Positions 18,150 to 37,194 are shown, counted from the stretch's first letter. The stretch is DNA of 57,962 nt from Candidatus Brocadiia bacterium (GCA_046538485.1 JBKHIT010000029.1:1-57962), one strand, 5' to 3'. Made by a program: numbers and translations. The notes: a model not told the origin generated them from the sequence alone.

Positions 18150-18947
18150 TCACCATGTCGGCAGCACCGAATATTCTTCCCGGCCCGTAATGCTCCAGCC
18201 AGCGGGCTGCAGGTCTTCAAAGTTATGCCACCGGGCATGGCTATCGTAGAAAAGGATATTGGCGCCGGCCGGCACCGGTCCCCGTAGCAGGACAACAGCG
18301 TGTTGCTGTCCCCAATTCTGTCGCACACCGTTCCCGTGATTAAACTCCACAATGCCCGCGGTTGATGAATCACGACAGCGGTCCTGCAGGGCAACAAAAG
18401 TGCTTGGGTGGGAAGCGGCTTCTGGAGACCGGGGCATTCGTTCGGCAGGATTGCCGAACGTCGGATTCGCCCGGTCCGCTTCGTAAGATACGCTGCCGTA
18501 CGTCCCAAAATATCTCCATGGTCTATCCTCACCGATGCTGATATCGCTGATGGCAGGGCAACGCCAGAGAGTAAGATCTCCCAGAAAAGGTTCGAGCATA
18601 GGTCTCAGATCCCAGTACCCCGGCCATCTGCTGGTCCATTGGCATTTCCAGCAGGTGGAATCGTAACCTTCGTTCATCGGAAACTGACCGTATTCGTTGT
18701 TGTACATCTGGAGTCCCAATCCGCATTGCTGGAATTGTCCCAGGCAACGAATACGCTTTGCCGCCCCCCGAGCCCGTTCCAGCGCCGGCATAAGCATCGC
18801 AGCCAGAATGGCAATAATGGCGACAACAACCAGCAATTCGATAAGCGTGAAGCCTGCGTCTTCACGCTTCCTCATTGTCCTGAGCCTGTCGACGGGCAGC
18901 TCAATCAACGTAAATGCAACATGCGAACGCCATTTTGCCTGATTCAT
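18150..18947 (-). CDS. Prepilin-like (DUF1559/H-X9-DG) protein with duplicated FTLIEL cassette
   Basis: [52 protein letters not shown] at 18947 after GGAGG. Confidence 0.85.
   Translation of the reverse strand: MNQAKWRSHVAFTLIELPVDRLRTMRKREDAGFTLIELLVVVAIIAILAAMLMPALERARGAAKRIRCLGQFQQCGLGLQMYNNEYGQFPMNEGYDSTCWKCQWTSRWPGYWDLRPMLEPFLGDLTLWRCPAISDISIGEDRPWRYFGTYGSVSYEADRANPTFGNPAERMPRSPEAASHPSTFVALQDRCRDSSTAGIVEFNHGNGVRQNWGQQHAVVLLRGPVPAGANILFYDSHARWHNFEDLQPAGWSITGREEYSVLPTW
18834..18896 (-). mobile_element. 63-bp in-frame prepilin-motif cassette, copy 1
   Basis: 1 mismatch to the 4-copy consensus; mobility is inferred. Confidence 0.65.
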
Positions 18948-19354
18948 CGATTGCCTTCCTCCCGATTCTTGCGCTTTTGTCCCTGTGGTATTGGGCAACG
19001 TACACAAGATTTATTTTCCTCAGTCTAACGTCAGAGAAGCCGATTTCAAGGCCCTCGGGACCTGGCCCGGCATGATAGGTTCTTTTCACGGGACGCCTGA
19101 TTCAACCTCATCGGTCATGATATAATAACCTGCAATTCCCCCGGCGCAAAAGCTTCCACCCCGTCCCAGTTCGATGTTGGGTGTTCGTCTGTCGTCGTTT
19201 AATCCGTCGTTCCGCCGGTCCCGTCCTTTGACCTCTGCGCTCTGCATCTCTGCTCGTTAAAAAAGACGGACAGGAGGACAGAATCTGACATCAATCTTTT
19301 CACTTCTGAGCACAACTCTGTGCTCAAAATGTGCCCGAAATGGATTGACAGGCC

Positions 19355-19399
19355 AAAAAATAGGGCCTGCCGCAGACATCTTATCTGCCTGGCAGGCCT
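19355..19399 (-). terminator. Intrinsic terminator downstream of tRNA
   Basis: Minus strand AGGCCTGCC-AG-GCAGA-loop-TCTGC-GGCAGGCCC followed by TATTTTTT. Confidence 0.75.
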
Positions 19400-19410
19400 T
19401 CTGTTACGCA

Positions 19411-19485
19411 TGGTGGGCCCAGAGGGATTCGAACCCCCAACAAACGGATTATGAGTCCGCTGCTCTGCCGTTGAGCTATGGGCCC
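19411..19485 (-). tRNA. tRNA with CAT anticodon, most likely tRNA-Ile2 (lysidine)
   Basis: GGGCCCATAGCTCAACGGCAGAGCAGCGGACTCATAATCCGTTTGTTGGGGGTTCGAATCCCTCTGGGCCCACCA: cloverleaf, TTCGAA T-loop, encoded CCA; Ile2 versus Met judged from the acceptor stem. Confidence 0.93.
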
Positions 19486-19505
19486 AAAATCACGATTCAA
19501 TATTG

Positions 19506-19535
19506 AGTATAGCCTCCGCACCCGGCAGAGGTCAA
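19506..19535 (-). promoter_or_regulatory. Sigma70-type promoter for the tRNA
   Basis: TTGACC-N18-TATACT on minus strand, 20 nt upstream of the tRNA. Confidence 0.55.
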
Positions 19536-19545
19536 GCTTCGGGGT

Positions 19546-21501
19546 TTACTCACCCTTATTGGCTTTGATGAACGCCTGCCTGGATTTACCCTCCCTACCA
19601 AGCTCCTTATAACATTTACCCAGCGCCCGCCATGGTTCACTCGAACGTTTGTTGAGATCCACCGCCAGCGCGGCGGATTTTGCGGCCCGACGCAACCACT
19701 TTTGGCGCTCCTCATCGGTCTCCGCCTCCCGTGCCCGCCGAAGCAACGCCTCCGCCCGGAACGCCCGGGCCGTCCAGCTATCCGGATTTCGCTCCAGAAC
19801 AACGTCCAGTTCCTTCAAAACTTCATCCAGAGGTGCTTCGGGAAGACCTTCCTGAAAACCAACCGGATTGGTAAATTTCAAATGCCGCATATTCGGACGC
19901 CTGGAGATTTGCACTTCTTGAGAGACCGCCACCAATGCCGTATCATCCCAGTGCACGCACCTCCAATCACCCTCTTCGAAGAAATGTGCGCTGTCGCGGG
20001 CCCTGTACCGCACGATGATCCACCTGACTCTTTCCTCTTTCAAAATCTCCTGCCAGCCCGGATTGCCTTCGGCAACATCGATGGCCTGCTGGATCCCCTC
20101 GTTTCCGTACACCAGACAGCGCCCATCGATGAAAACTTTGTGTTCCGGCCAGAACCGATAAATGAGATACCCCCCCCACTCGTAAACATTATAAAGCGGG
20201 CCCGGCAACTCTACCCTGTCCAGATAATTGCACGCTCTGACGGGCAAACGATCTTCTGCGGCTCCCATCTCAAACGACCCCGTTCCAAAATGGCGGCTGA
20301 GAATAGCAACCATCACAATGTAAACAGCGATTCTGTAGAGGAAGTGGCGTTCCCCGGCCTCATCGGGATCGGCTTCTTTCACCCCGGCCAACCGACGCGC
20401 ATAGGTGAAGTGGAAACCGAGAATCGCCGGTGCCAGCAACACGAACCAGGCCAGATTTCGAACCGATTTAACCGCCATCGCCCCGAACCCGACCATAAGC
20501 AAAAGATCCGCACAAAGCTGTGGGAGATCCCGCCTGAATCGTTTCTGCCTGTATGACAACATAGCGGAGCGGAAAAACAGCACCGCGGCAATTCCCAGCA
20601 AAACCCAAAAAGGCGCGAAACCTATCTCTCGGGGCATCGCTTGCCATTCATAAACCCTTTGCACCAGAGAAACGCGGGAGAAAAGGCGAAAAGGATACGT
20701 CAGCGATTCTGCTCCGTAAGGCGTAATCAAGCTGGCCGCCAAACACATCGCACCGGCGGCGAACATCCCCTGAAACCGGCTACCTCTGTGGCGGAACAGC
20801 ACCTCCCGAAACCAGCCTTCCTCGGGGAAACTGAGTGCCACGCGCACGATTTCCGCAACTCCGTACGCCCCCAACAGGAGGAAGCCAATTACAAAACCGC
20901 CATGCACATTTACCCACAGAACCATCAAAACCGGCAAGAGGATCAATCGCCCCCTGCTCCCCCATAAGAACGGCCAGGGCTGGCCGCGCTTCTTTTTCCC
21001 AGCGGAGGGCAATTCTTCTTCAAAAACACCCTGAATCAGTAGATAGAAAATCATCAAAAAAATAAATGAAAGTATGAACGGTCGCATCAGGGCGCGCGTC
21101 AGGAGCTGAAAAGTTACGGCCAGAATAAGAATCCCGGCCAGTTCCGGGCCAACACCCCGTCGGCGAGCAGCCACCCAGGCCAGAACAATACCCGTCGTCA
21201 TCACAACTGCCCGGAAGAAAACCAGCCCATTGAGCCCGGCAACTGAATGCACCAGAAACAGGACAACCCCTGAAAGCCACGAATGATAAGTCCAGGGCCG
21301 GTCGGCCGCAGTGTGAGAAAAAATGTCCTTATCCGGGACTGAATACGTTTTTACAATGTACTCGCCCGCCCGAACGTGCCACCACAAATCGAACGCCTTC
21401 AGATTGCTGACAAACAAAACGAAGACGACAGCAACCAGAAGGACGGTGAGGGAAAGACGCGTTTTGCCAGAATTTTCTTCCTCAAGCATCATTGCACACA
21501 A
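19546..21501 (-). CDS. Polytopic membrane protein with C-terminal TPR-like repeats (possible GT-C-like glycosyltransferase)
   Basis: About 10 or more hydrophobic segments; DLWWH..GE, WVNVHGGF, EWQ, YEWGGYL, VFIDGR; W.ALG..Y..LGR...A...F..A TPR pattern. Confidence 0.6.
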   Translation of the reverse strand: MCAMMLEEENSGKTRLSLTVLLVAVVFVLFVSNLKAFDLWWHVRAGEYIVKTYSVPDKDIFSHTAADRPWTYHSWLSGVVLFLVHSVAGLNGLVFFRAVVMTTGIVLAWVAARRRGVGPELAGILILAVTFQLLTRALMRPFILSFIFLMIFYLLIQGVFEEELPSAGKKKRGQPWPFLWGSRGRLILLPVLMVLWVNVHGGFVIGFLLLGAYGVAEIVRVALSFPEEGWFREVLFRHRGSRFQGMFAAGAMCLAASLITPYGAESLTYPFRLFSRVSLVQRVYEWQAMPREIGFAPFWVLLGIAAVLFFRSAMLSYRQKRFRRDLPQLCADLLLMVGFGAMAVKSVRNLAWFVLLAPAILGFHFTYARRLAGVKEADPDEAGERHFLYRIAVYIVMVAILSRHFGTGSFEMGAAEDRLPVRACNYLDRVELPGPLYNVYEWGGYLIYRFWPEHKVFIDGRCLVYGNEGIQQAIDVAEGNPGWQEILKEERVRWIIVRYRARDSAHFFEEGDWRCVHWDDTALVAVSQEVQISRRPNMRHLKFTNPVGFQEGLPEAPLDEVLKELDVVLERNPDSWTARAFRAEALLRRAREAETDEERQKWLRRAAKSAALAVDLNKRSSEPWRALGKCYKELGREGKSRQAFIKANKGE

Positions 21502-21532
21502 ATTTCAGCTCCAGACGGCGCATATTCCTTGC

Positions 21533-24034
21533 TCAGTTTTCTCGCCGCAGCACAATTTTCCGTTCCGTGCGAAAACTCGTCAAGGTCAACTGCCACGGTG
21601 TTAACTCAAATTGAAGCGCGCCGGCCCTGTAAGTCGTCCATACCGGCACGTCGGCCTCCGCCAAAGCCTGACGGGTTTTGCCGGGAAGTGGATCTCCGCA
21701 ACTCGCGACAGCCAGTTGAGGATTGACCTCCTCCAAAAACTCCACCAATCCGTCGGCCCATCGGCCGTGGTGTGGCAGCACAAGGACATCGGCCTTGAGT
21801 TCACCCGAATGTTCGCGCAACAGGTGATCCATTGCATCGGTTCGGATATCACCTGTTAACAGCATACGCCAGCCAGCATACCGACACAACAAAACGAGGG
21901 ACAGGTCGTTTTCGGACACATTACCCATCGACAAAAAGCGTTCATCCGGATGCAGAGCTGTGAAATGAAGACCATGGCCTCGCACCTCTCCGCCCCGCCA
22001 CAGGGACCTTTTCTCCCGGCATGCATGCTCCAACTTTTCTTCCAGCACACTCCGTGGCACCCCGGGCGGAAGCGGCGGGATGACAAGTTGTTCGATCCGG
22101 AAATGTTCTCCCAATCTCGGCACGAAACTGCAGTGGTCGCAATCCCTGTGCGAGACCGCCAGCAAAGAAACTCTTCTGTGACGATCTCTCCACAAAAATC
22201 GTTCGAGCGAGTTCACACGCCCGGGACTGACAGATCCGGCATCATATATCATAACCGAACGTTCAGGGGCTCGAAACACAATTGACTGCCCGTGGCCTAC
22301 GTCCAGCAGGGTCGCGCAAAGGTTCTCGCCATCCCGAGCGGTGAGGTCGGGGATGATGAAACTGATCGCCAGGATTGTTGCTCCGGCAAGAAAACAAGTG
22401 GATCCCCGCACGAACCGTTTTCTCACAACCCACAACACTAAAATCGCGAAGAATCCCAGGATCCACCAGGTCGGCGGCCCGGGTGTGTGGAACACAAACC
22501 CCGGCAACCGGGACGACAGGTGCAGGATGCCCCTGATCTGTCCGCACAACAGATTTGCCGCTCCCACAAACGGCCCGGCCAGCGGGGGAAAAACCAGGGC
22601 CACCGGGACAAGCAAAAAACAGTCTATGATCAATATCAGCACCACTGGCCACAACATTACGTTAACGAGAGGTGTCAGCAGAGAAAAATGGTTGAAATGA
22701 TGCGCGGACAACGGTGCAATCACCAGCCACACCGACGTGGAAAGAAACAGGTAGTGTCCGCCATAACGTTTCACGTCCTCAAGAATTGTGCGTTCTTCCG
22801 GCTGCTGAATCCGGTCGATAAGATCGCCCCAGGGCCAGACGATGTGTCGTAACTGGCGAAATATGTAAAGAATGGCCCACACGGCAACCAGGGTGAACTG
22901 AAAACCGATCCCAAAAAGTTCCGCCGGATTCCAGACAAGTATCACAAATACCGCGCCCAAAACCGCATTCACCGGATCACCCTCCCTCCTGAATAGCGGC
23001 GCTGCGGAAACGAAAGAAACCATCAGTGCGGCCCGGCGGGCAGAGACCTGGAACCCCGTAAAAACCACGTAGAGCCAGACAAGCAAGATCAGCAACCCGG
23101 ATCGCCAGGACAGGGGAAGGCCGGCAGCGGTAAAAACCGCCCACAAAAACGCGGCCAGCATGCCCACATGAAGACCGCTGATGGCGAGAAAATGCAGCGA
23201 ACCGACTTCGGACAGTAAAGCGTGAGTATCTGTATCCAGCGCGGCCCTCTGGCCGAAAATCAGCGCCCGTACAAGCGGATCGATATCCTGCCGATACTTC
23301 TTGCGTAAAACAGTTTTCAGCCGGCCCCTCAGCCGCCCGACCATTACCATCGGCGAAACGTACCAGCCCGGTCGGTGAACGAGCTCAAGCGCTTCCCCGG
23401 CCTCAACATAGGCGCTTCCGGAAATCCCCCGGCGAGCAGCGGACCGACGGTAATCTCGCTCGCCTGGATTTGTTGGCGGACCGGTTGTTTTCACAAAAGC
23501 CAGCATCCGAACCCTGTCGCCAACACAAACACCCGGAAACTTTCCTTTTCCATAGACTTTCAATCCTCCGCACGCTGGCTGCCACCGCCCGTTATCCGCC
23601 GAGATCTGCTGCGCTTCAAGTCTACATTGCCAGCCGGTATCTGGAGGCCCTTCCGTGTAACATGGGGGCTGAATGCTTCGGAGTTCAGCCTCCCGTTTGA
23701 TTGTGCCTTTGAGATAGCACAAGCGGCTCTGCAGTGGGAGAACTCGGCTCAGATGCGACGGGGGCCGGTATCTTGCCCGCATCAAATGCCAGCCACCACC
23801 GAGGGGAACCACAACCAGCAGGGCGAGTATCCAATTCCCCCAGGGCGCCAATCGGCACCTGGTCGCCCACCCGGAAAACACCATAACAACAAGAGCCAGA
23901 ACAAGCCACTGCCACCAGGCCGGCCTGAGAAACGCATCCAACCAGATCCCTGCCGCCAGTCCGATGACAATCGGAATCAAAGGACGGTGTCGTGGTGAAA
24001 ATTTCCCATGAGTATCAGTAAAAGCGCCTGTCAT
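21533..24034 (-). CDS. comEC: ComEC/Rec2 DNA-uptake protein
   Basis: NPGERDY (DUF4131), HFLAISGLHVG competence domain, LDVGHG and SHRDCDH metallo-beta-lactamase domain, LLTGD, PHHG. Confidence 0.92.
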   Translation of the reverse strand: MTGAFTDTHGKFSPRHRPLIPIVIGLAAGIWLDAFLRPAWWQWLVLALVVMVFSGWATRCRLAPWGNWILALLVVVPLGGGWHLMRARYRPPSHLSRVLPLQSRLCYLKGTIKREAELRSIQPPCYTEGPPDTGWQCRLEAQQISADNGRWQPACGGLKVYGKGKFPGVCVGDRVRMLAFVKTTGPPTNPGERDYRRSAARRGISGSAYVEAGEALELVHRPGWYVSPMVMVGRLRGRLKTVLRKKYRQDIDPLVRALIFGQRAALDTDTHALLSEVGSLHFLAISGLHVGMLAAFLWAVFTAAGLPLSWRSGLLILLVWLYVVFTGFQVSARRAALMVSFVSAAPLFRREGDPVNAVLGAVFVILVWNPAELFGIGFQFTLVAVWAILYIFRQLRHIVWPWGDLIDRIQQPEERTILEDVKRYGGHYLFLSTSVWLVIAPLSAHHFNHFSLLTPLVNVMLWPVVLILIIDCFLLVPVALVFPPLAGPFVGAANLLCGQIRGILHLSSRLPGFVFHTPGPPTWWILGFFAILVLWVVRKRFVRGSTCFLAGATILAISFIIPDLTARDGENLCATLLDVGHGQSIVFRAPERSVMIYDAGSVSPGRVNSLERFLWRDRHRRVSLLAVSHRDCDHCSFVPRLGEHFRIEQLVIPPLPPGVPRSVLEEKLEHACREKRSLWRGGEVRGHGLHFTALHPDERFLSMGNVSENDLSLVLLCRYAGWRMLLTGDIRTDAMDHLLREHSGELKADVLVLPHHGRWADGLVEFLEEVNPQLAVASCGDPLPGKTRQALAEADVPVWTTYRAGALQFELTPWQLTLTSFRTERKIVLRREN

Positions 24035-24179
24035 TATCGCGCATCCCCGGAACGCCGGTAATTTATCGACTGCCAGCTAAAGCATAGCAACTGCGGACCC
24101 TGATTGCAAAAACCCATCCCGCGCCAACCGGCGTTTTATGCTTACCGGCGCTGTGCTATAATCTAATCGGAGGGAGAAG

Positions 24180-25370
24180 ATGGTAGAAAGAAGACCGAAA
24201 CTCGTTTACATTCTCGCCCAATTTCCGTCGCCCACGGAAACATTTATCGCAAACGAAATCAGCGGCGTTATCGAGAACGGGGCTGCGCTGGCGGTTTTCG
24301 CGTTCCGACAGGGGGAAATCGGCGAGATGCCTCCCTGCCGAGTTTTTTATCGCGGGCAAAAAGAGTACGTCCGGATGTCAGGGTTCTGGAAAGATTATTG
24401 GGCTTACACCATCGACGCCTGTCGTCTCGAATGGCGGGCAGCAGTGAATTTCCTTTACACGCTTCGCAATCTGGGAACCGCGCGCGAACTTGCTCAGATT
24501 GTTCAGGAAGAGAACATCACGCACCTGCATGCTCATTTCGCTCATATCCCCGCCGATCTTGCCCTAATGGTTGGCAAAAGGGAAGACCTGACCGTCAGCT
24601 TTTCAGCCCACGCGTGGGACGTTTATTGCCAGGAGAAGACCGTCGCGACAAAGATCCGCCGCTCCAACCTGTGCATAACGTGCACGGAGGCCGCTCGCCG
24701 ACATCTGGAATCGCTGGTTGAGGACGACCAAAAATCAAAAATCCAGACGATTTACCACGGGACAGATCTTGAACGTTTTGAGCAGACCAGGAATGGTGAA
24801 CTGGGTGCCCCCCCTCGTCTTCTGGCCGTGGGCCGCCTGGTACCGAAGAAAGGATTTGATGTTCTGCTCTACGCCTGTCAACGGCTTGCTGCCCGCCGCG
24901 ATTTCCATCTTAAAATCGTCGGAGAAGGCCCTTTCGGTCCGCGCCTCAAGAAATTGACGTCGGATTTCGGGCTATCCGAAAGGGTGACCTTTGCCGGACA
25001 TGTTCCATATGAAAAAATGCCGGAGGTTTACCGCAATGCCGATCTAATTGCGGTACCGAGCGTAATTGGACGGGACGGCAATCGGGATGGTCTGCCCAAC
25101 GTCGTGGTGGAAGCAATGGCCAGCGGTGTTCCGGTCGTTGGGAGTCGTTTGAGCGGGATCCCCGAGGCTATCTATGACCGCGAAACCGGGATTCTCACTG
25201 TCCCTGGCGACAGCGCATCGTTGGCCGACGGGGTCAGTACTCTTTTATCTGATGACAGTTTGAGGGAAAACTGTGTGAAGGCCGCGCGGAATCTGGTTGA
25301 GGAGAAATTTGACTATCGGCAGAACGCCGCTCACGTCCACGAAGCTCTTCAGGGGGCCGGCGCGCCGTAA
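24180..25370 (+). CDS. GT4 glycosyltransferase (WcaL-like)
   Basis: FPSPTETFI, HLHAHF, VGRLVPKKG, DGLPNVVVEAMASG. Confidence 0.9.
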   Translation: MVERRPKLVYILAQFPSPTETFIANEISGVIENGAALAVFAFRQGEIGEMPPCRVFYRGQKEYVRMSGFWKDYWAYTIDACRLEWRAAVNFLYTLRNLGTARELAQIVQEENITHLHAHFAHIPADLALMVGKREDLTVSFSAHAWDVYCQEKTVATKIRRSNLCITCTEAARRHLESLVEDDQKSKIQTIYHGTDLERFEQTRNGELGAPPRLLAVGRLVPKKGFDVLLYACQRLAARRDFHLKIVGEGPFGPRLKKLTSDFGLSERVTFAGHVPYEKMPEVYRNADLIAVPSVIGRDGNRDGLPNVVVEAMASGVPVVGSRLSGIPEAIYDRETGILTVPGDSASLADGVSTLLSDDSLRENCVKAARNLVEEKFDYRQNAAHVHEALQGAGAP

Positions 25371-25417
25371 AAAAGCTTTTCCAGAACCAGGCGACGAATT
25401 TTCCCGGGGACCACGGG

Positions 25418-26392
25418 TCAGGGCTGGACCGGCTGTCCGGATTCCATGGATTCGTTGGCCGCGCAGGTCACCATCTGCGTTTTATGGGCATCCTCGTACG
25501 AACTTTTGATCTCCGAATCGTCGCCGCTTTCGACAGCATCAATGAAAACGCGGTCTTCGATCTCGAAAACGCTGTCTTCTTTGCTGGTCACCGTGCAGGA
25601 TTTTTCAGGCGTTTCAAACTCCAGCCCGAGATCCCATCCGGCGACCTTCACGCGGCACTGGTTGCAGAAAATTTCCAGCGAGACGCCGCCCCCGCACTTA
25701 ACGGCGCAGCTTGAAGAAAGCTCGCAGATCATCCCGTCTTCGAACTCGAGCGTGCAGATACTGGCATCTTCGACGCTGTATTTTTCGACATCTGTAATGA
25801 TTCCCGTGCGGCCGACGCAATAGACGTTCTCGACATCTCCGAGGAGGTAGCGGGCGAGATCGAAGGTATGGGTGGTTTGCTCCATGATTTGTCCGCCGCT
25901 CATATCTTTTTGTCGCCACCAGTAAACTCCCGGCATCCCGCCGATCCAGCCGCCCCGCGCCAGCACCGGTTGATCGTCCTGAATCATCCGACGGGTTTGT
26001 TCGACTGTCTGGCGGTAGCGCGACATATATCCGACGCTTGTGATAAGGCCCTTGTCTTTCACCCCTTCGAGTATTTTTGTCGGCGTCTCGCGGTTATTGC
26101 CGATCGGTTTTTCGACAAAGAATGGTATTTCCATCTCGGTGAGTGCCGCTTCTATTTCTCCGTGCGCATGCGGGGGAACGCAGACGTAGGCGGCTTCTAT
26201 GTCCAACTCATCGAGCATCGTGCTGAGATCGGTAAAGGCGCTGGCGCCTGGAAACCGCGCGGCGGCTTTCACAGCCCTTTCTTCGTCCAGGTCCATGCAT
26301 CCGATCACTTGAGCGTTTTCGACCTTGGTCAGTCCCTCCATATGGCGGCTGGCAATCCCGCCGGTTCCGATGAGTCCTACTTGCACGGCCAT
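25418..26392 (-). CDS. Gfo/Idh/MocA oxidoreductase
   Basis: IGTGGIA Rossmann motif, VEKP, GGQIMEQTTHTFD. Confidence 0.9.
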   Translation of the reverse strand: MAVQVGLIGTGGIASRHMEGLTKVENAQVIGCMDLDEERAVKAAARFPGASAFTDLSTMLDELDIEAAYVCVPPHAHGEIEAALTEMEIPFFVEKPIGNNRETPTKILEGVKDKGLITSVGYMSRYRQTVEQTRRMIQDDQPVLARGGWIGGMPGVYWWRQKDMSGGQIMEQTTHTFDLARYLLGDVENVYCVGRTGIITDVEKYSVEDASICTLEFEDGMICELSSSCAVKCGGGVSLEIFCNQCRVKVAGWDLGLEFETPEKSCTVTSKEDSVFEIEDRVFIDAVESGDDSEIKSSYEDAHKTQMVTCAANESMESGQPVQP

Positions 26393-26417
26393 ACTCTATC
26401 TCCTCAGAAAAAGAATT

Positions 26418-27712: not shown

Positions 27713-29044
27713 ATGACAACCGACAATTTAACGAGCACAAGCACACTCAAGAAAAAGATTGAAAACCGTGAAGCCCGGGTCGGCGTAGTCGGACTTGGAT
27801 ACGTCGGTCTTCCTCTCCTTGTAGAATTTGCCCACGCGGGATTCAAAGTCGAGGGAATCGATACAGACGCTGCTAAAGCGGAGAGCATCAACGCTGGCAA
27901 ATCATATATCGGCGATATCAACGACGATACAATTGAGGGGTTGGTGGACAAAGGGCAGCTTACTGCCCATTCCGACTACAGCGCGATTGGTGAATGTGAC
28001 GCCGTTGTCATCTGTGTTCCAACGCCGCTGCGAAAAACAAGAGATCCTGATCTTTCTTACGTAGCCGACAGCGTCAAAAATGTCCGCGAAGAAATGAGCG
28101 CGGGCGTCCTTGTCATTCTGGAAAGCACAACTTATCCGGGCACCACTGAAGAAGTTGTCCTTCCCATACTCCAGGGCGGTGAAACGAAACTGGGTCGCGA
28201 TTTTTTCCTCGCTTTCAGTCCAGAAAGAGTGGATCCCGGTCCTTCTCTCACCGAATATAATCTCCGTAACGTTCCGAAAGTCGTGGGCGGGATAAACCAG
28301 GAATCGACCGAGCTCGCCTGCGCGCTATACGGAACTTTCGTAGAAAAAGTGGTCCCCGTCTCGCACAGCCGTGTCGCTGAGATGGTGAAACTCCTCGAGA
28401 ATACCTACCGGAGCGTCAACATCGGGCTTGTGAACGAACTTGCTCTTATGTGTCACGAACTAGGCGTCAACGTGTGGGAAGTGATTAACGCCGCGAAGAC
28501 CAAACCCTACGGGTTCCAGGCCTTTTATCCCGGTCCGGGACTTGGCGGTCATTGCTTGCCAATAGATCCGATCTATCTCGCCTGGAAAGCCAAACTCCTC
28601 GGTTTCGAACCCCGTTTCATCGATCTCGCCGAGCGCGTGAACAGTTCAATGCCACAGCATGTTATAAGGCTCCTGACAGACATCCTGAACGAAATCCGCA
28701 AACCGCTGAACGGCTCCCATATCCACATCCTGGGTGTGGCCTATAAACCCGATGTCTCGGACACTCGTGAATCCCCTGCCATCAGCATCATAGAATTGCT
28801 GCGGGCGCGGGGAGCACATGTTACATACAGCGATCCTCATGTGGGCGTTTTGCCCCTCCCGACAGGCGAAGAGCTGGAAGATCAACCAGTGGAAGAGTTT
28901 CCGCTGGAACAGGTTGATTGCTGCGTCATTGTTACCGATCATAACGCTTTTCCCTGGCATGATGTCGTCGATCGATGTTCTCTGATTTTGGACACCCGCA
29001 ATGCTCTCGAAAAATTTGACGGCTCACACATCAGGCAGCTTTGA
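27713..29044 (+). CDS. Nucleotide-sugar dehydrogenase (UDP-HexNAc 6-dehydrogenase, WbpA/WecC-like)
   Basis: GLGYVGLP, ICVPTP, ESTTYPGTT, FSPERVDP, KLLENTYR, GGHCLPIDP, GVAYKPDVSDTRESP. Confidence 0.92.
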   Translation: MTTDNLTSTSTLKKKIENREARVGVVGLGYVGLPLLVEFAHAGFKVEGIDTDAAKAESINAGKSYIGDINDDTIEGLVDKGQLTAHSDYSAIGECDAVVICVPTPLRKTRDPDLSYVADSVKNVREEMSAGVLVILESTTYPGTTEEVVLPILQGGETKLGRDFFLAFSPERVDPGPSLTEYNLRNVPKVVGGINQESTELACALYGTFVEKVVPVSHSRVAEMVKLLENTYRSVNIGLVNELALMCHELGVNVWEVINAAKTKPYGFQAFYPGPGLGGHCLPIDPIYLAWKAKLLGFEPRFIDLAERVNSSMPQHVIRLLTDILNEIRKPLNGSHIHILGVAYKPDVSDTRESPAISIIELLRARGAHVTYSDPHVGVLPLPTGEELEDQPVEEFPLEQVDCCVIVTDHNAFPWHDVVDRCSLILDTRNALEKFDGSHIRQL

Positions 29045-29162
29045 GTGGAACCGGTAAAGGGCAATTCAAAATCGATCCGGAGGCACCTGTTTTGGCCGAT
29101 GCAGACCCGAGGAGATTCTGGATGATTACCCGGCTCCGGAAAATGTCAGCCCCCCTCGAAAA

Positions 29163-29357
29163 CGACTGGCGGAAGTGCTGAGAATTCTCCCTCATGCCCA
29201 ACGGGAAGTCGTTCTGATGCGGCTTGTCGACGACATGAAACTCAAAGAAATTGTCGCCGCGCTCGATATCCCCACCGGAACCGCGAAACCGCGACTTTAC
29301 AATGCCCTGAAAACCCTGAGAGAAGACGAACGAACGCGTAATTATTTTCAGGAATAA
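29163..29357 (+). pseudogene. ECF sigma factor region-4 remnant
   Basis: LP..QREV..MR....MKLKEI...LDIPTGTAK.RL..A...LR; no region 2 upstream. Confidence 0.7.
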
Positions 29358-29429
29358 ATGATCGCTGAAAACCATAATATTGTGTAGGTCCGCCGGCGCA
29401 ATAGAACCTTTCACGACTCAACCCTGGCT

Positions 29430-30236
29430 TCAGTCCACTTCATCCATTTTGTAGTCAAATACGTAAGCGTAATTGTAGGTATCGCCCTCGGCGTAACCTA
29501 TGCCGTGGTAGGCATAGAGATGTGGTTCCCGGTTGTTGAACCATTTCACCACGCCAGCCGGTGAGAGGACATTAACGCCCTCCGGGGCCGTATTGTAATC
29601 TCCCCGGGCATGGATGGTCACTCGCTCCGGCTCATAGCCTGCGATTCGGAAGTGATCGGCGGCCCAGATCAGACGGGTGATGCCCCGGGCTGTGATGCGA
29701 CGGTATGGCTTCTTGTAAGGATGCCCTGTGCTGACGGAATACCCCGCAGACGAATGACGTTGATCATTTTTTATGCGTTTCAGTTGACGGTCACGGGCAT
29801 ATTTCCCGGCGGTAACCATCGTGGGACAAAATAGAATCTGCGGGTTGCCCAGATAGTCGCCGTAATGAAGCCGACCCAGAGGACCGAGACCATCCCCGCC
29901 CTTAACGGATGGACCACCCCACCAATAGGAAGGACGGCGCGCTGGCAGCCAACCGGCCTCGTCGTTGTAATACATTTGCAGGCCGAGGCCTATCTGGTGA
30001 AGATTGCCGGCGCAAGTTGTCCGGCGAGCCGCCTCGCGTGCCCTCTCCAGCGCAGGCATCAGCATCGCCGCAAGAATGGCGATAATAGCAATGACCACCA
30101 GCAATTCGATAAGCGTGAAGCCTGCGTCTTCACGCTTCCTCATTGTCCTGAGCCTGTCGAAGGGCAGCTCAATCAGGGTAAAAGCTTTGTCCCTATCCCC
30201 GGCCCGGCGTGCGGATACATCGAACTCGTGCTCCAT
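29430..30236 (-). CDS. Prepilin-like (DUF1559-type) protein with duplicated FTLIEL cassette
   Basis: [50 protein letters not shown] at 30236 after AAGGAG. Confidence 0.85.
30102..30164 (-). mobile_element. 63-bp in-frame prepilin-motif cassette, copy 2
   Basis: Matches the consensus CCCTTCGACAGGCTCAGGACAATGAGGAAGCGTGAAGACGCAGGYTTCACGCTTATCGAATTG. Confidence 0.65.
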
Positions 30237-30323
30237 AAGCTCCTTTTTGGCAAACGTTTGTTTGCAGCGCATTTCAGGCTCCTCGGCAAACAGCAGCCAA
30301 TCTGACACCCATTCGTACCATTT

Positions 30324-30383
30324 TAATTTCTTAATTAAGAAATTACTCTAAATTCATCTTACCTAAGACTAATCCTATGTCAA
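30324..30383 (-). promoter_or_regulatory. Promoter TTGACA-N16-TAAGAT plus perfect 22-bp palindromic operator (30324-30345)
   Basis: TAATTTCTTAATTAAGAAATTA starts 10 nt downstream of the -10 box. Confidence 0.75.
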
Positions 30384-30581
30384 GCTTTCTTCGATCGCTG
30401 GCCTGTGCGAAAAGAATGAGCGCGGTCCTTTTTTTCACCGGTTGACGCCTGCCCATGGAATCGCGTATAACTAACTTGGGCTTACGGACCTTATCGTCCG
30501 CTGCCCGGAAGACCTTAACCTGCCTGAAATGATCAAACGCCCCTCGAACGAGAGGATTGTTTCTCTCCCGGGAGTCACAAT

Positions 30582-31838
30582 ATGAGCGAAAGAGGAAAAG
30601 TTGTTCTGGCTTATTCGGGCGGACTGGACACCTCGGTAGCGGTCCGCTGGATTCAGGAGACCTATGACCTTGATGTTGTCACGCTGACGATTGACATGGG
30701 CACCCAGAAAGACCTTGAAGAGGCGCGTCAGCGTGCCCTGCAGGTCGGCGCTGTGGACGCACTCGTGGTCGATGCTGCCGAAGTGTTTGTCGAATATTTT
30801 GTCTGGCCAGCCCTCCAGGCCGGAGCAGTTTACGAAGGGGAATATCCCCTTGCAACCGCACTCGGACGGCCTTTAATCGCCAAGCTACTGGTCGACACGG
30901 CACGACAACACGACGCCGAAGCGATCGCCCACGGATGCACGGGCAAGGGAAACGACCAGGTTCGTTTCGATGTCGCCACCCGGACCCTCGCCCCGGATTT
31001 GCGTGTGATTGCCCCAGCCAGGGAATGGGGTATGACCCGGGAAGAAGAAATTAATTATGCTCGGGAAAGGGACATTAAGGTGGAAGTGACAAAGAAAAGT
31101 CCGTATTCCACGGACGAAAACATCTGGGGGCGCAGCATCGAGTGCGGCGAGCTTGAGGATCCGTGGGTGGAGCCCCCGGAAGATGCTTACAGCTGGACAT
31201 GTAATCCCGCCGATACCCCTGCGAAACCGCGCAACGTAGAAATCGAATTTGAACAGGGTGTACCGGTTGCGATCGATGGAGAAACGATGAGCGGAAAAAC
31301 CCTTATCGAGAAACTGAATCGGATAGCCGGCGAACATGGGGTTGGCCGGATCGATCACGTGGAGAATCGGCTCGTCGGAATCAAAAGCCGGGAGATCTAC
31401 GAAGCCCCCGCCGCCATCGTCCTGCATAAAGCTCATCGCGCCCTCGAAAGCATCGCCCTCACGCGCCCCGCTTTACGATTTAAAGAATCCGTATCCCAAC
31501 AGTATGCCGATATTGTCTACGACGGACTGTGGTTCAGCGCGTTCCATCAGGACCTGCTGGCCTACGTGCTGTCGAGTCAGCGGGCCGTTTCCGGGACCGT
31601 GCGCCTGAGACTTTACCGGGGACAGGCAACAAAAGTGGGACTCAAGAGCCCCTTCTCCCTCTACAGCAAAGCCCTCGCCACCTATGACGAAGGCGATCAG
31701 TTCGCGCACGATGCGGCCGTCGGATTCATCGAACTCCACGGGTTGCCAACCCGCGTTCAAGCACGAGCGCAAATGTCCGCCCTCTCCCCCGAAGAAGTTC
31801 GGGCCCGGATTATGCCACCGGAAATCGAACCGAAATAA
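30582..31838 (+). CDS. argG: Argininosuccinate synthase
   Basis: VLAYSGGLDTS, HGCTGKGNDQVRF, VENRLVGIKSREIYEAP. Confidence 0.98.
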   Translation: MSERGKVVLAYSGGLDTSVAVRWIQETYDLDVVTLTIDMGTQKDLEEARQRALQVGAVDALVVDAAEVFVEYFVWPALQAGAVYEGEYPLATALGRPLIAKLLVDTARQHDAEAIAHGCTGKGNDQVRFDVATRTLAPDLRVIAPAREWGMTREEEINYARERDIKVEVTKKSPYSTDENIWGRSIECGELEDPWVEPPEDAYSWTCNPADTPAKPRNVEIEFEQGVPVAIDGETMSGKTLIEKLNRIAGEHGVGRIDHVENRLVGIKSREIYEAPAAIVLHKAHRALESIALTRPALRFKESVSQQYADIVYDGLWFSAFHQDLLAYVLSSQRAVSGTVRLRLYRGQATKVGLKSPFSLYSKALATYDEGDQFAHDAAVGFIELHGLPTRVQARAQMSALSPEEVRARIMPPEIEPK

Positions 31839-31887
31839 CTCTCTGGCACAATAACCCCTCACAGGCACCAGGAAACGGCCGGAAAAC

Positions 31888-31947
31888 TTGACAAAGCATA
31901 ACTTTCCTCTATAATAAATTAGTAGTAATTTTGTCTATGTAAAATTA
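31888..31947 (+). promoter_or_regulatory. Promoter TTGACA-N16-TATAAT plus operator TAATTT-N10-AAATTA (31926-31947)
   Basis: Consensus hexamers; operator 10 nt downstream of the -10 box. Confidence 0.8.
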
Positions 31948-32001
31948 AACCCGGAATCGTGGTTGGGGCTTTCGGTCAAACTCTCCTGGAGGACCTGGAA
32001 A

Positions 32002-32556
32002 ATGAGACCCTCAGATTCCCAAAAAATACCGGGGGTCACCCTCACTGAGCTGCCCTTCGACAGGCTCAGAACAATGAGGAAGCGTGAAGACGCAGGTTTC
32101 ACGCTTATCGAATTGCTGGTGGTCATCGCAATCATCGCCATCCTGGCCGCTATGCTCATGCCCGCGCTGGAAAACGCACGAGAGCAAGCACGCCGAATCA
32201 AATGTATCGGCCAGCTCCGACAAATGACACAGGGAACAATAATGTTCGCCCTCGATCATGACGATCAGACGCCCGGGCGGAATGGACGCTGGAAAGGCCG
32301 CTGGAATACCGCCGTCGCGAGCGTGCCCAGTATGAATTCGCTCTGGGACGAGGACTACGGGTATCTTGCCGATCGCGAAATGATGCGGTGCCCCAGCCGG
32401 GACACCGCGCGATACACAAATGATAACCGCTACCTCGGCCTCTGCGACCTTCATACCTGCGCCGGACATTACTGGCGGCGCGCTGACAGCACCTGGTACT
32501 ATTTCAAAGACGCCTCCGCCGAAAGCGCCCTGCGCGGCACCGCTATTCCGGATTGA
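32002..32556 (+). pseudogene. Prepilin-like gene with cassette; short, lacks the H-X9-DG C-terminus
   Basis: [36 protein letters not shown]; stops at TGA without the N..ADG motif. Confidence 0.6.
32053..32115 (+). mobile_element. 63-bp in-frame prepilin-motif cassette, copy 3
   Basis: 1 mismatch to consensus. Confidence 0.65.
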
Positions 32557-32642
32557 TACGCCGAAAATTACGGGGGGACCGGTCGTGATTGTCTTCTGAA
32601 AATAGAACTGTCCGTGCTCCTTTCGCGAATGAGGATCAGAAC

Positions 32643-35600
32643 GTGAGAAGTCTCTTCAGCTCTTTCATGACAGCTGTCCAGACCTTTTCGAAAACCACCC
32701 CGCTCGCAAAATCTTCCCTCCTTCCTATCCTTGTCGTCGCAATCGCCCTCCTGCTCTCGGGCGCGGTCCTCGGCGGAGGCGGAATGGGACACAACAAGGA
32801 ACTCTACGTCGTCCCGGCCCCCGAGACGGTAGAAATCGACGGCTCGCTCAAAGACTGGGATTTCTCCGGACACGTCCCCTTATACGTCGCCCCACAGACG
32901 CGCGAAACGCGCAGCGCCGACATCGCCATGATGTACGACGATAAAGCACTGTATATCGGCGGGAGAGTCCGGGACAATTCCCCGATGATGAACCGGCACG
33001 ATCCCCTCACAAAACCATCCCGCGCGTGGGATGCGGATGTCTGCCAGATTTTTTTCAGCCTGGATCCGGACGAGAAGCAGCCGCTTAAATACAGCAGTTT
33101 CAAAAAAGAGCATAAACACACCTCGCCGGTCGCCACGATGATGCTCTGGTATTTCACCGACCGCAAACAGCCCTCCCTGGCGATGTTCCAGGGGATGGGT
33201 TTTGGCAAAGCGCTCCGGCCCGATTTGCATAAAAACGGCCACATTCCCTCCAAACATTTCGATGCAGCTTTCAAAAAGGGCCAGGATGGCCTGAGTTATA
33301 CTTTCGAATATCGTATCCCCTGGAAAACCTTCCAGATGAAACGAATCCCGAAAGCAAAAGACACCCTTGCCGCAGCCATGGCCGTTTTCTGGAGCCGCCC
33401 GGACGGACTGAAGACCGCCGGCGGTTCGGCCTGGGCATGGAACGTAATGTCAAAAGGCGGATTCCCGTACCAATCCACCGCATGCTGGGGCACGCTCCGG
33501 TTCCACCCCGAAGGAAATATCCCCCGCGAATGGGTCGAAGGCGACATCCCTCCGGAACAACCACTCCCACTGACTTTCAAATACGAGCTGCCTCGGGAAG
33601 GTGAGACGACCATTCAGCTTTTCGATGAGAATAATGAATCCGTCCGCATCCTCGTCGCCCAGGAGTATCGCCCGGGAGGTATCAATACCGAAAGCTGGGA
33701 CGGTCTGGATAAGGATGGCAAACCGCTCCCGGCCGGGAAATACGCCTGGCGGGGCGTCGTACACGACAAAATCAAAATGAAATACCGTTTCAGCGTGCAC
33801 AATTCCGGCAATCCCCCCTATCCCACCGACGACAACACGGGAGGATGGGGCGCCGACCACGGACGGCCAACCACCGCTCTCGCGCTGGAAGACGGTATGA
33901 TACTGGCCTGGAGCAGCGCCGAATACGGCTGGGGCATCATCCGGGTCGACCTTGACGGTCAAAAAAAATGGGGTTCCAAGCGAACCGCCCAATATCTCGC
34001 CACCGACGGTGAACGGCTCTTCACGGCGGGCGGACACGGATGGTCCGGCGGAAGCGCCGTTAAAGTGATAAGCGCCGAAAACTCGCGCACGCTCAATTTC
34101 CAACCCGGACAGGAGACGCTTCCCCCACCAAAAGGTGAAGGCGAGAACAAAGTCACCGGACTCGCATGCAACGGGGAACGCATCTACGCCTCCTATGGCA
34201 AACGGAACCTGATTGGCGTGTACGATCTTAAAGGAAACCTGATCGACCAGTGGAAAGTGTCGTCCCCCGGACGCCTCGCCATCCGCCCGGATGGCAGCCT
34301 GGCCGCTTACAGCGGACAGCGCGTCGTGGCCGTTGACGACGGGAAGGTAAGTCCGCTGATCGACCGGAAACTCGAGGCCCCCCGCGGGATCGCGGTTGAC
34401 AGGGATGGCACAATTTACGTCGCTCAGGCGGGTAACCTCCAGCAGGTTCGTGCTTTCAGCCCGAGCGGAAAACTGCTCCGGAGCATTGGTAAAAAGGGCG
34501 GACGTCCCGCTAAAGGCAAGTTCAACCCCAAGGGCATGTACCAGCCGGGCGGTATCGACATTGATGTGCGCAACCGGCTGTGGGTGGCTGAAACCGCCGG
34601 CGGTCCCAAACGCATCAGCGTGTGGGACGGGGGCACCGGGAAATACCTGGATCAATACTTCGGTTCCTCCGGCTACTTTGCCTACGGGCACATCGATCCG
34701 GCCCGACCGGACGAAATCTACGCCAACCACGTGTTGTGGGGCATCAACTGGGACAACTACGAAACTCACCCGAAAACGACCGTCTGGCGCAAGACCAGCC
34801 CCAACATGATGCCACCGGTCAGTCCCAGCGCCTACATCAGTCACCCCCGCATGATCACCGCGGATGACGGGCATCAATACATGTATGGACGCAATCTGCC
34901 CATGAGCATTGTGCTGCGGCGCGACGGCGAGCTGTTCAAACCCTTTGTGGCCACCATCGAGGTGGGCCATGGCGGACGGTTCTCCACCGGATTGCCGCTG
35001 ATCGACGAGAATCCGGACCGGTTCCCCAATGCCACCTATCTGTGGCAGGATGCCAATAACGATCAGTGCGTGCAGGCGGAAGAGCTGGAAAAATTGCCCG
35101 GTAAACGCCGTTTCCGCAAAATTCGGCTTTCGATTGATAAACAGCAAAATCTCTATATGAACAAGGGCTACAAACTTGAGCCGGTCAAGATCACCGATAA
35201 GGGCCAGCCGGTGTATGATTTTGAGCAAGCCGAAAAAATTCCCGTCGGTCACGCCCCCTATTCCGACGGCTACGTCTACCCCGGTTACGGCGCGGGCACC
35301 ATTGCGCGAATTGACCCGGCCAACGGCGACAAACTCTGGCGCTATACCGGAATCACGCGATGGAAAAGCGCGCTCGAAATGGGAACTGTGGGTCCCGGTA
35401 AACTCTGGGGAACCACGGGCCTGATGGGCGTGGCCGGTAATTACGTCGCCTACATGACATATTTCGGTGTCAACCACGTCTTTCTGGCCGACGAGGGGAC
35501 GTATCTCGCCGCGCTGCTCCAGGACGGCCGCACGACGACGGGCCGCGGCCCCTACGAGGGTCAGCCCGAAGGTCAGGGCGGCAGTTTCGTCAAGCTGAAC

Positions 35601-36446
35601 ATCGACGGCAAGGATCGTTACTTCGTGATCCACGGCGGGCAGGACTCGCGCGTGTGGGAGGTACTCGGTCTGGATAGCGTTCAAAAACTCAGAGGTGGTA
35701 CCTACACGCACAAGCCCGAACAGGTGGCAACCGCCCGCAAAGCGCTGGAAAAATGGGAAGCCGCGAAGGCGGGCAAAACACAGATGGTCATCCACAAAGG
35801 ACGCAACGCACTGGATGAAGCTGAGGCCGTCACCGGCAGCGTGGATGACAATCGCCAGTTCGAGGCCAGAATGGCCTACGACGAGGACAATCTCTACGTT
35901 CGTTTCGATGTGAACACAAAGAATGCATTGACAAACTCCATGCCGGAGAAAAACATTCTGTTCCGGGGCGGCAATTGCCTGGATATTCAGATCGCCACTG
36001 ACCCCGAGGCCAACCCGGACCGCGAGGAACCCGCTCCCGGCGACCTCCGGCTGCTGGTGACGCGCCAGGACGGCAAACCCTTCGCCGTCATGTATCGACC
36101 GGAGGTGAAAGGATTTAACGGTGAACCGATCGTGCTGGACTCCCCGACCGGGCAGGAATCCTTTGATTCCGTCGAGGTGGTCAAAAACGTCGGGCTGGAT
36201 TATTCCAGAACGGACGATGGTTTCACCGCCACGGTGACCGTACCGCTGGATCTGATTGGCTTGAAACTCCAGCCAGGCGCCACCGTCACGATGGATCTGG
36301 GCTATGTCTTCGGCAATTCGAAAGGCAGTCGGGCATCAGCGCGGGCTTACCTCAACAACAACAGCTTCAGCGCCAACGTGACCGACGATATCCCGAACGA
36401 AAGCCGACTTGAGCCGGACCAATGGGCGACGGCGACGGTAAAATAG
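32643..36446 (+). CDS. Large secreted protein: CBM9/DOMON-like + FlgD-Ig + NHL/beta-propeller + C-terminal CBM9-like
   Basis: Signal peptide; [52 protein letters not shown] repeats; MAYDEDNLY; start uncertain (32589/32643/32667). Confidence 0.75.
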
Positions 36447-36480
36447 CGGCAAGGATACCCGTTTGAAAGGGGAGATTGTA

Positions 36481-37191
36481 ATGCTTCGCAACAGATACAT
36501 TGAAATGCCCGTAAGACCAAAACGTCGAAACTGCAATCGGGCCCGAAAAATCCGTCGTTGTTCGGGGGTAGCCCCCGCGTTCACACTCATCGAGCTGCCC
36601 TTCGACGGGCTCAGGACAATGAGGAAGCGTGAAGACGCAGGTTTCACGCTTATCGAATTGCTGGTGGTCATCGCGATTATTGCGATCCTGGCCGCGATGT
36701 TGATGCCGGCTCTGGAGAAAGCGCGGGAGGCGGCTTATGCGGCTCAGTGCTCGTCCAATTTCCACGAGATTCTGCTGGGGGTTCATTTGCACGCCAATGA
36801 CAACAATGAGATTTTGCCGAACCTCAACGGTGGTCCGGGCTATGACGGTTCGTATTCGACAATGGGATCGGCCAACGTAAATTCGCATTCAGATTGGTCC
36901 GTCATTCAGCAAAGCGACCATGCACAGTGGGCCAGTCAATATCTGGGACAACCCTGGCGATATGAGGCTTCCACAAAGCGTGTGCTGTGGTTATCGAACT
37001 CCGCATTCGCCGACCCGGCTGCTAAACTCAAATCCGAAATGTTTGTTAATCCGTTGCCTCCACCGGCGCGGGCCCATTGGTTTATGGGCCGCGTTCTGAA
37101 CTCCAGCCTCCGGCTGAAGTCCAGTCCGCTCGCGGGGATTGAGACTCGAGTTCAGCTGAGCCCGCTACTGAGCGGGCGAAACTGGACTTGA
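36481..37191 (+). pseudogene. Prepilin-like gene with cassette, truncated; the ORF runs into repeats A/B
   Basis: Similar to 45475-46572 up to [10 protein letters not shown] (~36985), then unrelated; last codons are repeat A/B DNA. Confidence 0.75.
36598..36660 (+). mobile_element. 63-bp in-frame prepilin-motif cassette, copy 4
   Basis: 1 mismatch to consensus. Confidence 0.65.
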
Positions 37192-37194
37192 GGC
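37089..37194 (-). repeat. Composite repeat B+A (minus orientation)
   Basis: A at 37089-37131, B at 37142-37194. Confidence 0.85.

Follow-up and report, generated by a model that had tools for sequence, protein, structure and literature searches.

Four prepilin-like genes in a 57,962-nucleotide (nt) stretch of DNA from a Candidatus Brocadiia bacterium (GCA_046538485.1, JBKHIT010000029.1:1-57962; the whole stretch is hereafter called the window) carry a nearly identical 63-nt cassette, in frame and near the 5′ end of the open reading frame (ORF). The source assembly comprises 5.19 Mb in 143 contigs, with 54% G+C and 88% completeness, and public records with the same cassette are labelled Phycisphaerae or Planctomycetota. 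Host gene 1 (18150-18947, minus strand; DUF1559 type) has its own leader, MNQAKWRSHVA, followed by a first FTLIEL motif at 18897-18914 and by cassette copy 1 (18834-18896), in which a box (18879-18896) precedes a palindrome (18834-18878) that ends in a second FTLIEL (18834-18851). Host gene 2 (29430-30272, minus strand; DUF1559 type; candidate starts at 30272 or 30236) has its first FTLIEL at 30165-30182 and copy 2 at 30102-30164 (box 30147-30164, palindrome 30102-30146, second FTLIEL 30102-30119). On the plus strand, host gene 3 (32002-32556) has a first motif that has decayed to VTLTEL (32035-32052) and copy 3 at 32053-32115 (box 32053-32070, palindrome 32071-32115, second FTLIEL 32098-32115), and host gene 4 (36481-37191) has its own leader of 33 residues, a first FTLIEL at 36580-36597 and copy 4 at 36598-36660 (box 36598-36615, palindrome 36616-36660, second FTLIEL 36643-36660). 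The 63-mer consensus is matched at the four sites with 1, 0, 1 and 1 mismatches, respectively, and 0 of 100 shuffles match.

The encoded proteins share one layout, namely their own leader, [AG][FV]TL[IT]EL, P[FV]D[RG] plus 11 residues, and FTLIELLVV[IV] plus 15 residues. The 63 nt amount to 21 residues of leader and motif and encode no nuclease or splicing domain. Pfam N_methyl (PF07963, cut-off 21.2 bits) matches genes 1 to 4 with 35.9, 45.6, 36.5 and 39.6 bits, and TIGR02532 (cut-off 16.3) with 32.3-38.3 bits; in all four hosts the best-scoring stretch is the second motif. The DUF1559/SBP_bac_10 profile (PF07596, cut-off 23.3), matched over its first 30-50 positions only, places genes 1 and 2 above the cut-off (25.3 and 34.3 bits) and genes 3 and 4 just below it (22.5 and 21.9 bits). 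Ten prepilin-like ORFs lie on the contig, four with the insert and six without. A preliminary description of the window had reported four copies with at most one mismatch, six paralogs lacking the insert, and a basic leader with a canonical G|FTLIEL site inside the insert, all of which we reproduce.

Identity limited to the cassette

In pairwise comparison the window cassettes are 95-98% identical. In contrast, identity is 76-80% over the adjoining 66 nt, although the encoded amino acids are the same in all four genes, and 62-86% in the first motifs. Since the background for that peptide-identical stretch is 81.6 ± 4.4% among 71 paralogs, the flanks are no more alike than the family at large and the identity of the cassette is block-limited. 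To the left it decays to background within ~6-9 nt, and to the right within ~5-11 nt. Past residue 30 the globular parts of the four proteins yield no more than local alignments of 34-119 columns, with 22-57% identity. The five cassette genes of an independent Phycisphaeraceae assembly show the same picture, with cassettes 87-98% identical versus flanks 65-85%, and second motifs 94-100% versus first motifs 78-94%.

The cassette genes are also scattered through the family. On a maximum-likelihood tree of 116 paralogs, poorly resolved in that 78 of its 113 branches are open, the seven cassette genes need seven label changes, versus 6.9 when labels are shuffled. Taken together, these comparisons support the cassette being a discrete DNA-level unit common to deeply diverged, non-clustering paralogs. 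The synonymous differences in the flanks and the unrelated globular domains noted in the preliminary description are thus borne out. That description had also remarked that a single recent clade with equally similar flanks would speak against its reading; because the identity is block-limited and the carriers are scattered, this is not the pattern found.

Concerted evolution alone could be proposed instead, with an old subfamily bearing a two-motif leader, homogenized by gene conversion within each genome, and nothing mobile. The ~75 nt of ~82% identical DNA that adjoin the cassette throughout the family would be in keeping with this, as would the age and spread of the architecture, found in several orders, and a second identical 5′ block ending in FTLIE(L) in five other paralogs at contig ends (both described below). 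However, identity reaches background within ~6-11 nt of both edges in the four copies and in the second genome, a sharpness not expected of ordinary conversion tracts; on the left there are no more than 18 nt of flank with 43-86% identity; on the poorly resolved tree the carriers form no clade and cluster no more than shuffled labels do; and the box is shared with repeats outside prepilin genes. We regard this account as unlikely.

Box and palindrome

The cassette lies exactly after the host's own FTLIEL codons and before the LVV... codons of the helix, and it divides into 18 nt of box, 21 nt that are the reverse complement of A/G-F-T-L-I/V-E-L, a 3-nt loop and 21 nt of site, 63 nt in sum. A pattern allowing every synonymous codon for FTL[IV]EL-PFDxL[R] was searched against 185,579 species genomes and returned nine loci in five assemblies (Phycisphaeraceae, five loci; Phycisphaerales and Hydrogenedentales, one each; Planctomycetales, two). 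All nine use CCC TTC GAC A[AG]G CTC AGG, while the FTLIEL codons on both sides vary freely; the first 18 nt are therefore conserved as DNA and not as peptide.

Of 41 genomes searched, 17 (16 of 40 relatives, and the source genome) contain the exact 18-mer, at 1-9 copies each, and none its reversed control. In the relatives, all 31 contexts viewed lie away from any prepilin motif, sometimes beside tRNA genes, often in what look like spacers and once as 35-bp tandem copies, and ~10 of the 31 run on into a short palindromic unit. Box plus hairpin as a general unit away from prepilin genes was considered and rejected, the mean hairpin z being 0.07 downstream of the box versus -0.05 upstream.

The remaining 45 nt are a palindrome whose 3′ arm is a fresh A/G|F-T-L-I/V-E-L site and whose 5′ arm is the reverse complement of that site; in most lineages the central part of the 5′ arm has drifted, and the Planctomycetales copies have it nearly perfect. 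Copy 2, the exact consensus match, has a perfect 10-bp stem with a 7-nt loop and a distance of 9 nt from stem to cassette end, and copy 1 forms 15 of the 16 palindrome pairs. In an ungapped alignment of 30 cassettes from the source genome, five assemblies and metagenomes, the stems join columns 38-41 with 78-81 and columns 46-57 with 61-72. Counted together with a third, non-covarying candidate stem between first motif and box, paired cells make up 92% versus 80.8% after shuffling (0 of 500 shuffles reach 92%). On the same count, the covariation score is 0.351 versus 0.160 for shuffled alignments and at most 0.104 for slid partners, and 9 of 22 pairs have changed on both sides. Threonine codons illustrate this, ACG facing CGT (Arg), ACA facing TGT (Cys) and ACT facing AG[GT], as do phenylalanine codons, with TTC facing GAA (Glu) and TTT facing AAA (Lys). 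A single-sequence RNA fold of 121 nt around copy 2 is not exceptional (z = -1.03); the evidence for the hairpin is that covariation.

The pairing accounts for the chemistry of the leader. The antisense of Ala/Gly-Phe-Thr-Leu codons reads Lys/Gln-Arg/Cys-Glu/Lys-Arg/Gly, so that the leader is basic (K/Q-R-E/K-R...) because it is the antisense of the cleavage-site codons, and the same origin explains odd leaders such as RKCKGKA and RRKPEG. Over the 30 cassettes, G-T mispairs (15) and A-C mispairs (14) are equally frequent; these numbers are small, give no sign of a structure in the sense RNA and fit a palindrome at the level of DNA.

Compensatory changes that keep the hairpin across lineages might also point to a leader module under selection, in which box and hairpin would tune translation, co-regulate the carriers or alter leader cutting, the last a possibility that the preliminary description had raised. 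Most cassettes conserve both box and first motif well. The hairpin spans the codons of the cleavage site, with an internal ATG/GTG overlapping its foot. The four window genes share one polysaccharide-utilization-like region, and immediately 3′ of two of them lie genes for giant CBM/PA14 proteins. Such a module nevertheless appears improbable to us. The equal G-T and A-C mispairs argue against a sense-RNA structure, and the leader amino acids track pairing and not a conserved peptide. Old copies sit in intact genes despite their loss of pairing, box identity and first motif, and only 7-8 of the ~120 paralogs in the genome carry a cassette. An Rfam scan confined to eight cassette loci from other assemblies (L023-L025 and L027-L031) and three box loci returned only tRNAs and sub-threshold chance matches and no family for the cassettes.

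Translation, age and distribution

Shine-Dalgarno-like sites were scored against a generic anti-Shine-Dalgarno sequence, which may differ from the host's own 16S end. The upstream ATGs of all four long frames score -7.9 to -10.3 kcal/mol, versus -2.5 to -4.0 kcal/mol with poor spacing (1-8 nt) for the ATG inside the cassette. Gene 1 has -10.3 kcal/mol before the ATG at 18947 versus -4.0 before the internal ATG at 18875; gene 2 has -8.1 and -7.9 for its two upstream starts versus -4.0 for the internal ATG at 30143; and gene 4 has -8.3 before the ATG at 36481 versus -4.0 before the internal ATG at 36619. Candidate sigma-70-like promoters, each called by consensus match only, lie 5′ of the long frames of gene 3 (31888-31915, plus strand; 12 of 12 hexamer matches, 16-nt spacer) and gene 2 (30356-30383, minus strand; 10 of 12). 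Because strong ribosome-binding sites precede the upstream and not the internal ATGs, the cassette is probably translated, within a leader of 32-54 residues.

Were the gene instead to begin at the cassette ATG, the box would be 5′ untranslated and the upstream leader and first FTLIEL a dead remnant. From its ATG onward the cassette does read as a textbook prepilin start, NCBI annotates the sister-strain orthologs P0007, P0008 and P0011 from that codon, ATG or GTG stands there in 25 of the 30 aligned cassettes, and first motifs decay in old copies. But the Shine-Dalgarno-like site there is weak and badly spaced where the upstream ATGs all have strong ones, and the upstream frame is open and in phase in every copy. 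The codon is replaced by ATA, GTT, ATT or GCG in the other 5 of the 30; it is also a component of the palindrome foot and of the dispersed repeat itself, and its presence therefore does not require a start. We hold an internal start to be very improbable. The mature protein would be identical whichever start codon is used.

Prepilin peptidase requires glycine or alanine at -1, phenylalanine at +1 and glutamate at +5, followed by a hydrophobic helix. From these requirements we infer cleavage at the second site, the first motif having no helix after it. The genome encodes two prepilin peptidase (Peptidase_A24) genes, located at C20:74082-74468 and C60:26112-26444.

The genome, scanned in six frames, has 136 prepilin-type motifs, of which 123 are followed in frame by 100 residues or more, and the first 25 mature residues of its prepilin-type ORFs are nearly invariant. 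BLAST and a mismatch-tolerant scan locate three diverged cassettes (C19:4088-4150, C64:17193-17255 and C23:9283-9345) with 81-87% identity to the window copies. The wreck of another lies at C18:~4727-4765 (locus L113, ~4700-5250), where FALIEL and most of the box are followed by a deletion in a prepilin-like pseudogene that has lost helix and body and retains an H-X9-DG-type C-terminal remnant in another frame. Among young copies, box and first motif are intact and 15-16 of 16 pairs form. In the old ones the box has 1-3 mismatches, pairing is down to 12 of 16 and the first motif has decayed (FSLLEL, STLVEL and FPLGEL), with the second motif and the gene intact. The coexistence of young intact and old decayed copies supports the reading put forward in the preliminary description, a micro-element spreading through a large pilin family. 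In the source genome the box is confined essentially to prepilin genes, which hold the three older copies and the pseudogene copy; the exception, at C128, is a single degenerate unit.

Public short contigs break inside every cassette, so the pairing of left and right flanks depends on the original assembly. A strain ~1-3% diverged, from run X2 of a second study, has contigs that, at genes 2, 3 and 4, run through the first motif and 27-43 nt into the cassette; one spans 31273-32095, with copy 3 present, and another reaches 36624 in copy 4. The insertions at these genes therefore predate the split of that strain, and the mutual differences of 1-3 of 63 nt among window cassettes are compatible with this age. 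Three insertions shared with the X2 strain are also what concerted evolution alone would lead one to expect.

Three proteins of one NCBI sister assembly, with accessions MBS3764863.1, MBS3764652.1 and MBS3762033.1, begin MRKREDAG or MWKREDAG. The sister-strain proteins P0007 and P0008 are 99-100% identical to the products of window genes 3 and 4 over ~121-123 residues and then differ (from window positions 32436 and 36987); P0007 matches gene 3 at 100% over residues 1-121, and its residues 122-228 (~107) have no counterpart there. The bodies of genes 3 and 4 are thus mosaic between close strains. P0011 starts MWKREDAG, and its 93% ortholog at C127:100515-101438 has the leader MVHDHGNKRKRLA and DNA without the cassette, a possible presence/absence difference between close strains that counts in favour of the preliminary description's reading. 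The difference between the two proteins reaches residues 30-31 (EK versus QS). That the P0011/P0156 difference runs past the cassette into the end of the helix, like a conversion tract, is a further point in favour of concerted evolution.

Identical blocks in both orientations could, in principle, serve as crossover sites that swap promoters and leaders among pilin bodies in the manner of a shufflon. The two 10-bp inverted arms around a 7-nt spacer resemble the core site of a tyrosine recombinase, and copies 2 and 3, inverted relative to each other at a distance of 1.9 kb, enclose both promoters. However, the window contains no recombinase, direct copies flank housekeeping genes, and copies in other genomes sit on contigs of their own. 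The joints listed from four runs, which come from short contigs ending inside the cassettes, include no cassette-to-cassette joint, inversion or deletion. Of the explanations considered, we find this one the hardest to credit.

To place the unit in a wider context, we compared a profile of the 48-residue region with 1.84 billion cluster representatives and classified the best 150 matches. The canonical architecture is found in 40 of these best 150, three of the 40 from the source genome. Two or more motifs occur in 109 of the best 150, and public prepilin-like proteins (P0005, P0009, P0010, P0012, P0022, P0030 and others) have unrelated inserts between 2-3 copies of FTLIELLVV..., several of which recur across protein clusters. 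A metagenome scan for the box followed after 21-33 nt by FTL[IV]E gave 30 loci, two of which look like chance (no hydrophobic helix) and ~21 of which are canonical in-frame cassettes abutting a first motif. At seven of the 28 true loci there is no first motif; the gene is of another pilin or pseudopilin type, the box is read in a different frame, and it stands 22-33 nt ahead of the cleavage codons. L096 and L106, from two metagenomes, encode a GspG-like pseudopilin with the box in its leader (PFDRLRANG...) and no first motif, conserved in both samples. Tandem or multiple units are seen at L090, L103, P0034 and P0044. The recurrence of the same unit at the same codon boundary in other lineages again supports the reading of the preliminary description. 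A degenerate pattern for the canonical junction is matched in 0 of 400 other genomes sampled from the phylum; the cassette is hence rare or patchy. Prepilin genes flank argG only in the source genome; the argG regions of 10 relatives contain no prepilin ORF of at least 150 residues and hence no orthologs for an empty-allele comparison.

Candidate routes of copying and comparison with known repeats

On balance we lean, if only slightly, towards a repeat-derived, in-frame palindromic mini-element of prepilin leaders that is copied between paralogs, is nearly silent phenotypically and decays with age. A palindromic repeat, non-coding by itself, would reside, in frame, in the class III leaders that are cleaved from prepilin-like proteins, where the palindrome would automatically supply the short basic peptide that such a leader needs. 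Translation would proceed from the upstream ATG of the host gene. With proline and charged residues after it in place of the hydrophobic helix, the first FTLIEL would not be a substrate, and one of the two prepilin peptidases would cut the second site, leaving the mature protein unchanged and the insert nearly cost-free. The element would be tolerated because the cleavage site is rebuilt and a leader-like peptide encoded. The unit would be copied as a block between paralogs of this very large family, either by a site-specific enzyme or, with the duplicated FTLIEL and LVV codons as anchors, by template switching or gene conversion over short patches, and old copies would then decay.

Several observations weigh against this mini-element, the first of them concerning its means of movement. 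Pfam finds no recombinase, transposase or nuclease in the window. Y1_Tnp has nine matches in the source genome and ten in five relatives, and none lies beside a box copy in these six genomes save one of 25.7 bits at ~1.4 kb (G002:C265); the relative G011 has five boxes and no Y1_Tnp match. The GIY-YIG gene of the source genome is flanked by different hairpins, with arms CCTGTCATTGCGAGG / CCTCGCAATGACCGG. There is no target-site duplication, as the second FTLIEL is the same 18-mer in the four window copies and the first varies by gene; among those compared by eye, the two motifs are fully identical in one case, L030. Terminal inverted repeats are imperfect, CCCTTCGAC agreeing with the reverse complement of the 3′ end, which is itself fixed by host codons, at 6 of 9 (FTLIEL type) or 7 of 9 (FTLVEL type) positions. 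A generic box element is ill-defined, since no hairpin follows the box away from prepilin genes. The joints listed from the four runs include no 63-base skip of the kind an empty allele would leave, the contigs ending in cassettes, and the P0011 case looks like a homologous replacement of the whole 5′ end and not like a cassette-precise insertion. Both the start codon used and cleavage at the second site are what we infer from sequence, and the NCBI pipeline places the start of P0007, P0008 and P0011 at the internal ATG. Finally, the first motif is well kept in most cassettes found, which could mean selection rather than youth.

The preliminary description had proposed a silent, site-specific micro-element, a coding MITE or homing-like. 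A discrete unit, sharp edges and a series of ages speak for it; spread by transposition or homing finds no support, given that the Pfam scan of the window gave no candidate enzyme and that neither the Y1_Tnp nor the GIY-YIG genes could be tied to the cassette. By BLAST, the genome also contains no longer element with the same ends that might be a parent transposon.

A passive route fits the sharp edges, with a template switch or a short conversion patch anchored on FTLIEL on the left and on CTGGTGGTCAT on the right. Between duplicated FTLIEL codons, template switching or gene conversion over a short patch would leave the same pattern as transposition or homing. At five contig ends (C99:1-52, C140:1-52, C143:1-56, C118:37830-37878 and C138:7383-7431), other paralogs carry a block, 100% identical in all five, that encodes ...MRLWRRG followed by FTLIE(L); they diverge exactly at the LVV codons, and the upstream part is unassembled. 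The cassette and this second, longer repeat thus share a codon boundary, which favours some general process at that site.

A more ambitious version, which we consider possible but doubtful, holds that class III signal peptides are a safe harbour for specialized palindromic mini-elements across several phyla, moved by a structure-specific enzyme. The element would then target the FTLIEL|LVV boundary, with one hairpin arm rebuilding the cleavage site and the antisense arm serving as leader, and excision of the product by the host peptidase would be the protein-level counterpart of intron or intein removal.

Full-text literature searches returned no description of such a cassette. The closest known behaviour is that of Rickettsia palindromic elements (RPEs) and REP-like repeats, an analogy that does not make the cassette a demonstrated member of either. 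RPEs are short multi-copy palindromic repeats that lie in frame in unrelated genes, are translated and encode no protein of their own. Like them, the cassette is palindromic and in frame in several unrelated coding genes, a likeness in behaviour to RPEs as they are described. Unlike them, it always sits at one codon boundary of one protein motif and regenerates that motif, it would lie in a discarded part of the protein, its 5′ box is shared with extragenic repeats, and half of its palindrome is dictated by host codons.

REP/REPIN repeats with RAYT transposases, and palindromic elements derived from IS200/IS605, have a conserved GTAG tag beside a hairpin and occur in hundreds of copies. The cassette resembles them in its short conserved tag by a hairpin, in structure kept over sequence and in identical young copies alongside decayed ones, and the source genome encodes Y1 (HUH) transposase homologs. 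It differs in having no GTAG tag, few copies and a position inside genes, in having no box copy beside a Y1 gene save the one weak case, and in having no hairpins after the box away from prepilin genes.

Long class III signal peptides, as in type IVb pilins and Flp pilins, extend beyond the usual 6-8 residues and are cut by prepilin peptidase at G|F-like sites. The 32-54-residue leaders predicted for cassette genes would be comparable in length, but the extra length is a repeat unit shared by unrelated genes, with an additional copy of the cleavage motif that looks non-functional. Inteins and homing elements are selfish DNA within a gene whose product is removed at the protein level, leaving the host protein intact. 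The cassette would likewise be selfish DNA removed at the protein level, although it has no self-splicing domain or nuclease, the host peptidase would remove it, and its target site is regenerated.

The Ssn family of GIY-YIG single-strand nucleases is associated with NTS/SRM hairpin repeats that have oriented, non-palindromic flanks, and SRM repeats are dispersed around genes that include pilus genes in Neisseria (Chenal et al., 2025, PMC11893778). The source genome has a small stand-alone GIY-YIG protein of ~107 residues (C119:58088-58306, L070) whose gene is flanked by hairpins; it appears Ssn/SRM-like and unrelated to the cassette. A link to the cassette has no support, since the hairpins flanking this gene are different ones and, by eye, the cassette misfits the published degenerate SRM pattern on both strands.

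If the mini-element is real, it would be a clear case of repeat DNA surviving in genes within a discarded part of the protein, and for a simple physical reason, namely that the reverse complement of hydrophobic cleavage-site codons encodes charged leader residues. It would bear on pilin and pseudopilin biology in the Planctomycetota, in which families of more than 100 DUF1559 genes are unexplained, and on the exchange of 5′ ends in large paralog families. The two tandem cleavage motifs are also a testable substrate for prepilin peptidase specificity. For annotation, pipelines disagree on the gene starts, and a doubled motif can pass for two genes or for a frameshift.

Giant proteins follow prepilin-like genes at 32589-36446, 37402-40959, 41028-44774 and 51242-55105, with CBM9, PA14, CBM6, Laminin_G and FlgD-Ig domains, and the region also encodes rhamnosidases, a heparinase-like lyase and a sulfatase, resembling a polysaccharide-use neighbourhood. 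The spacers 3′ of genes 4 and 1 contain a high-copy repeat (37080-37380, 17730-17819 and 37284-37373) with 321 BLAST matches in the genome, a contig depth of ~1777 versus ~28 around it, and many variable joints across the four runs.

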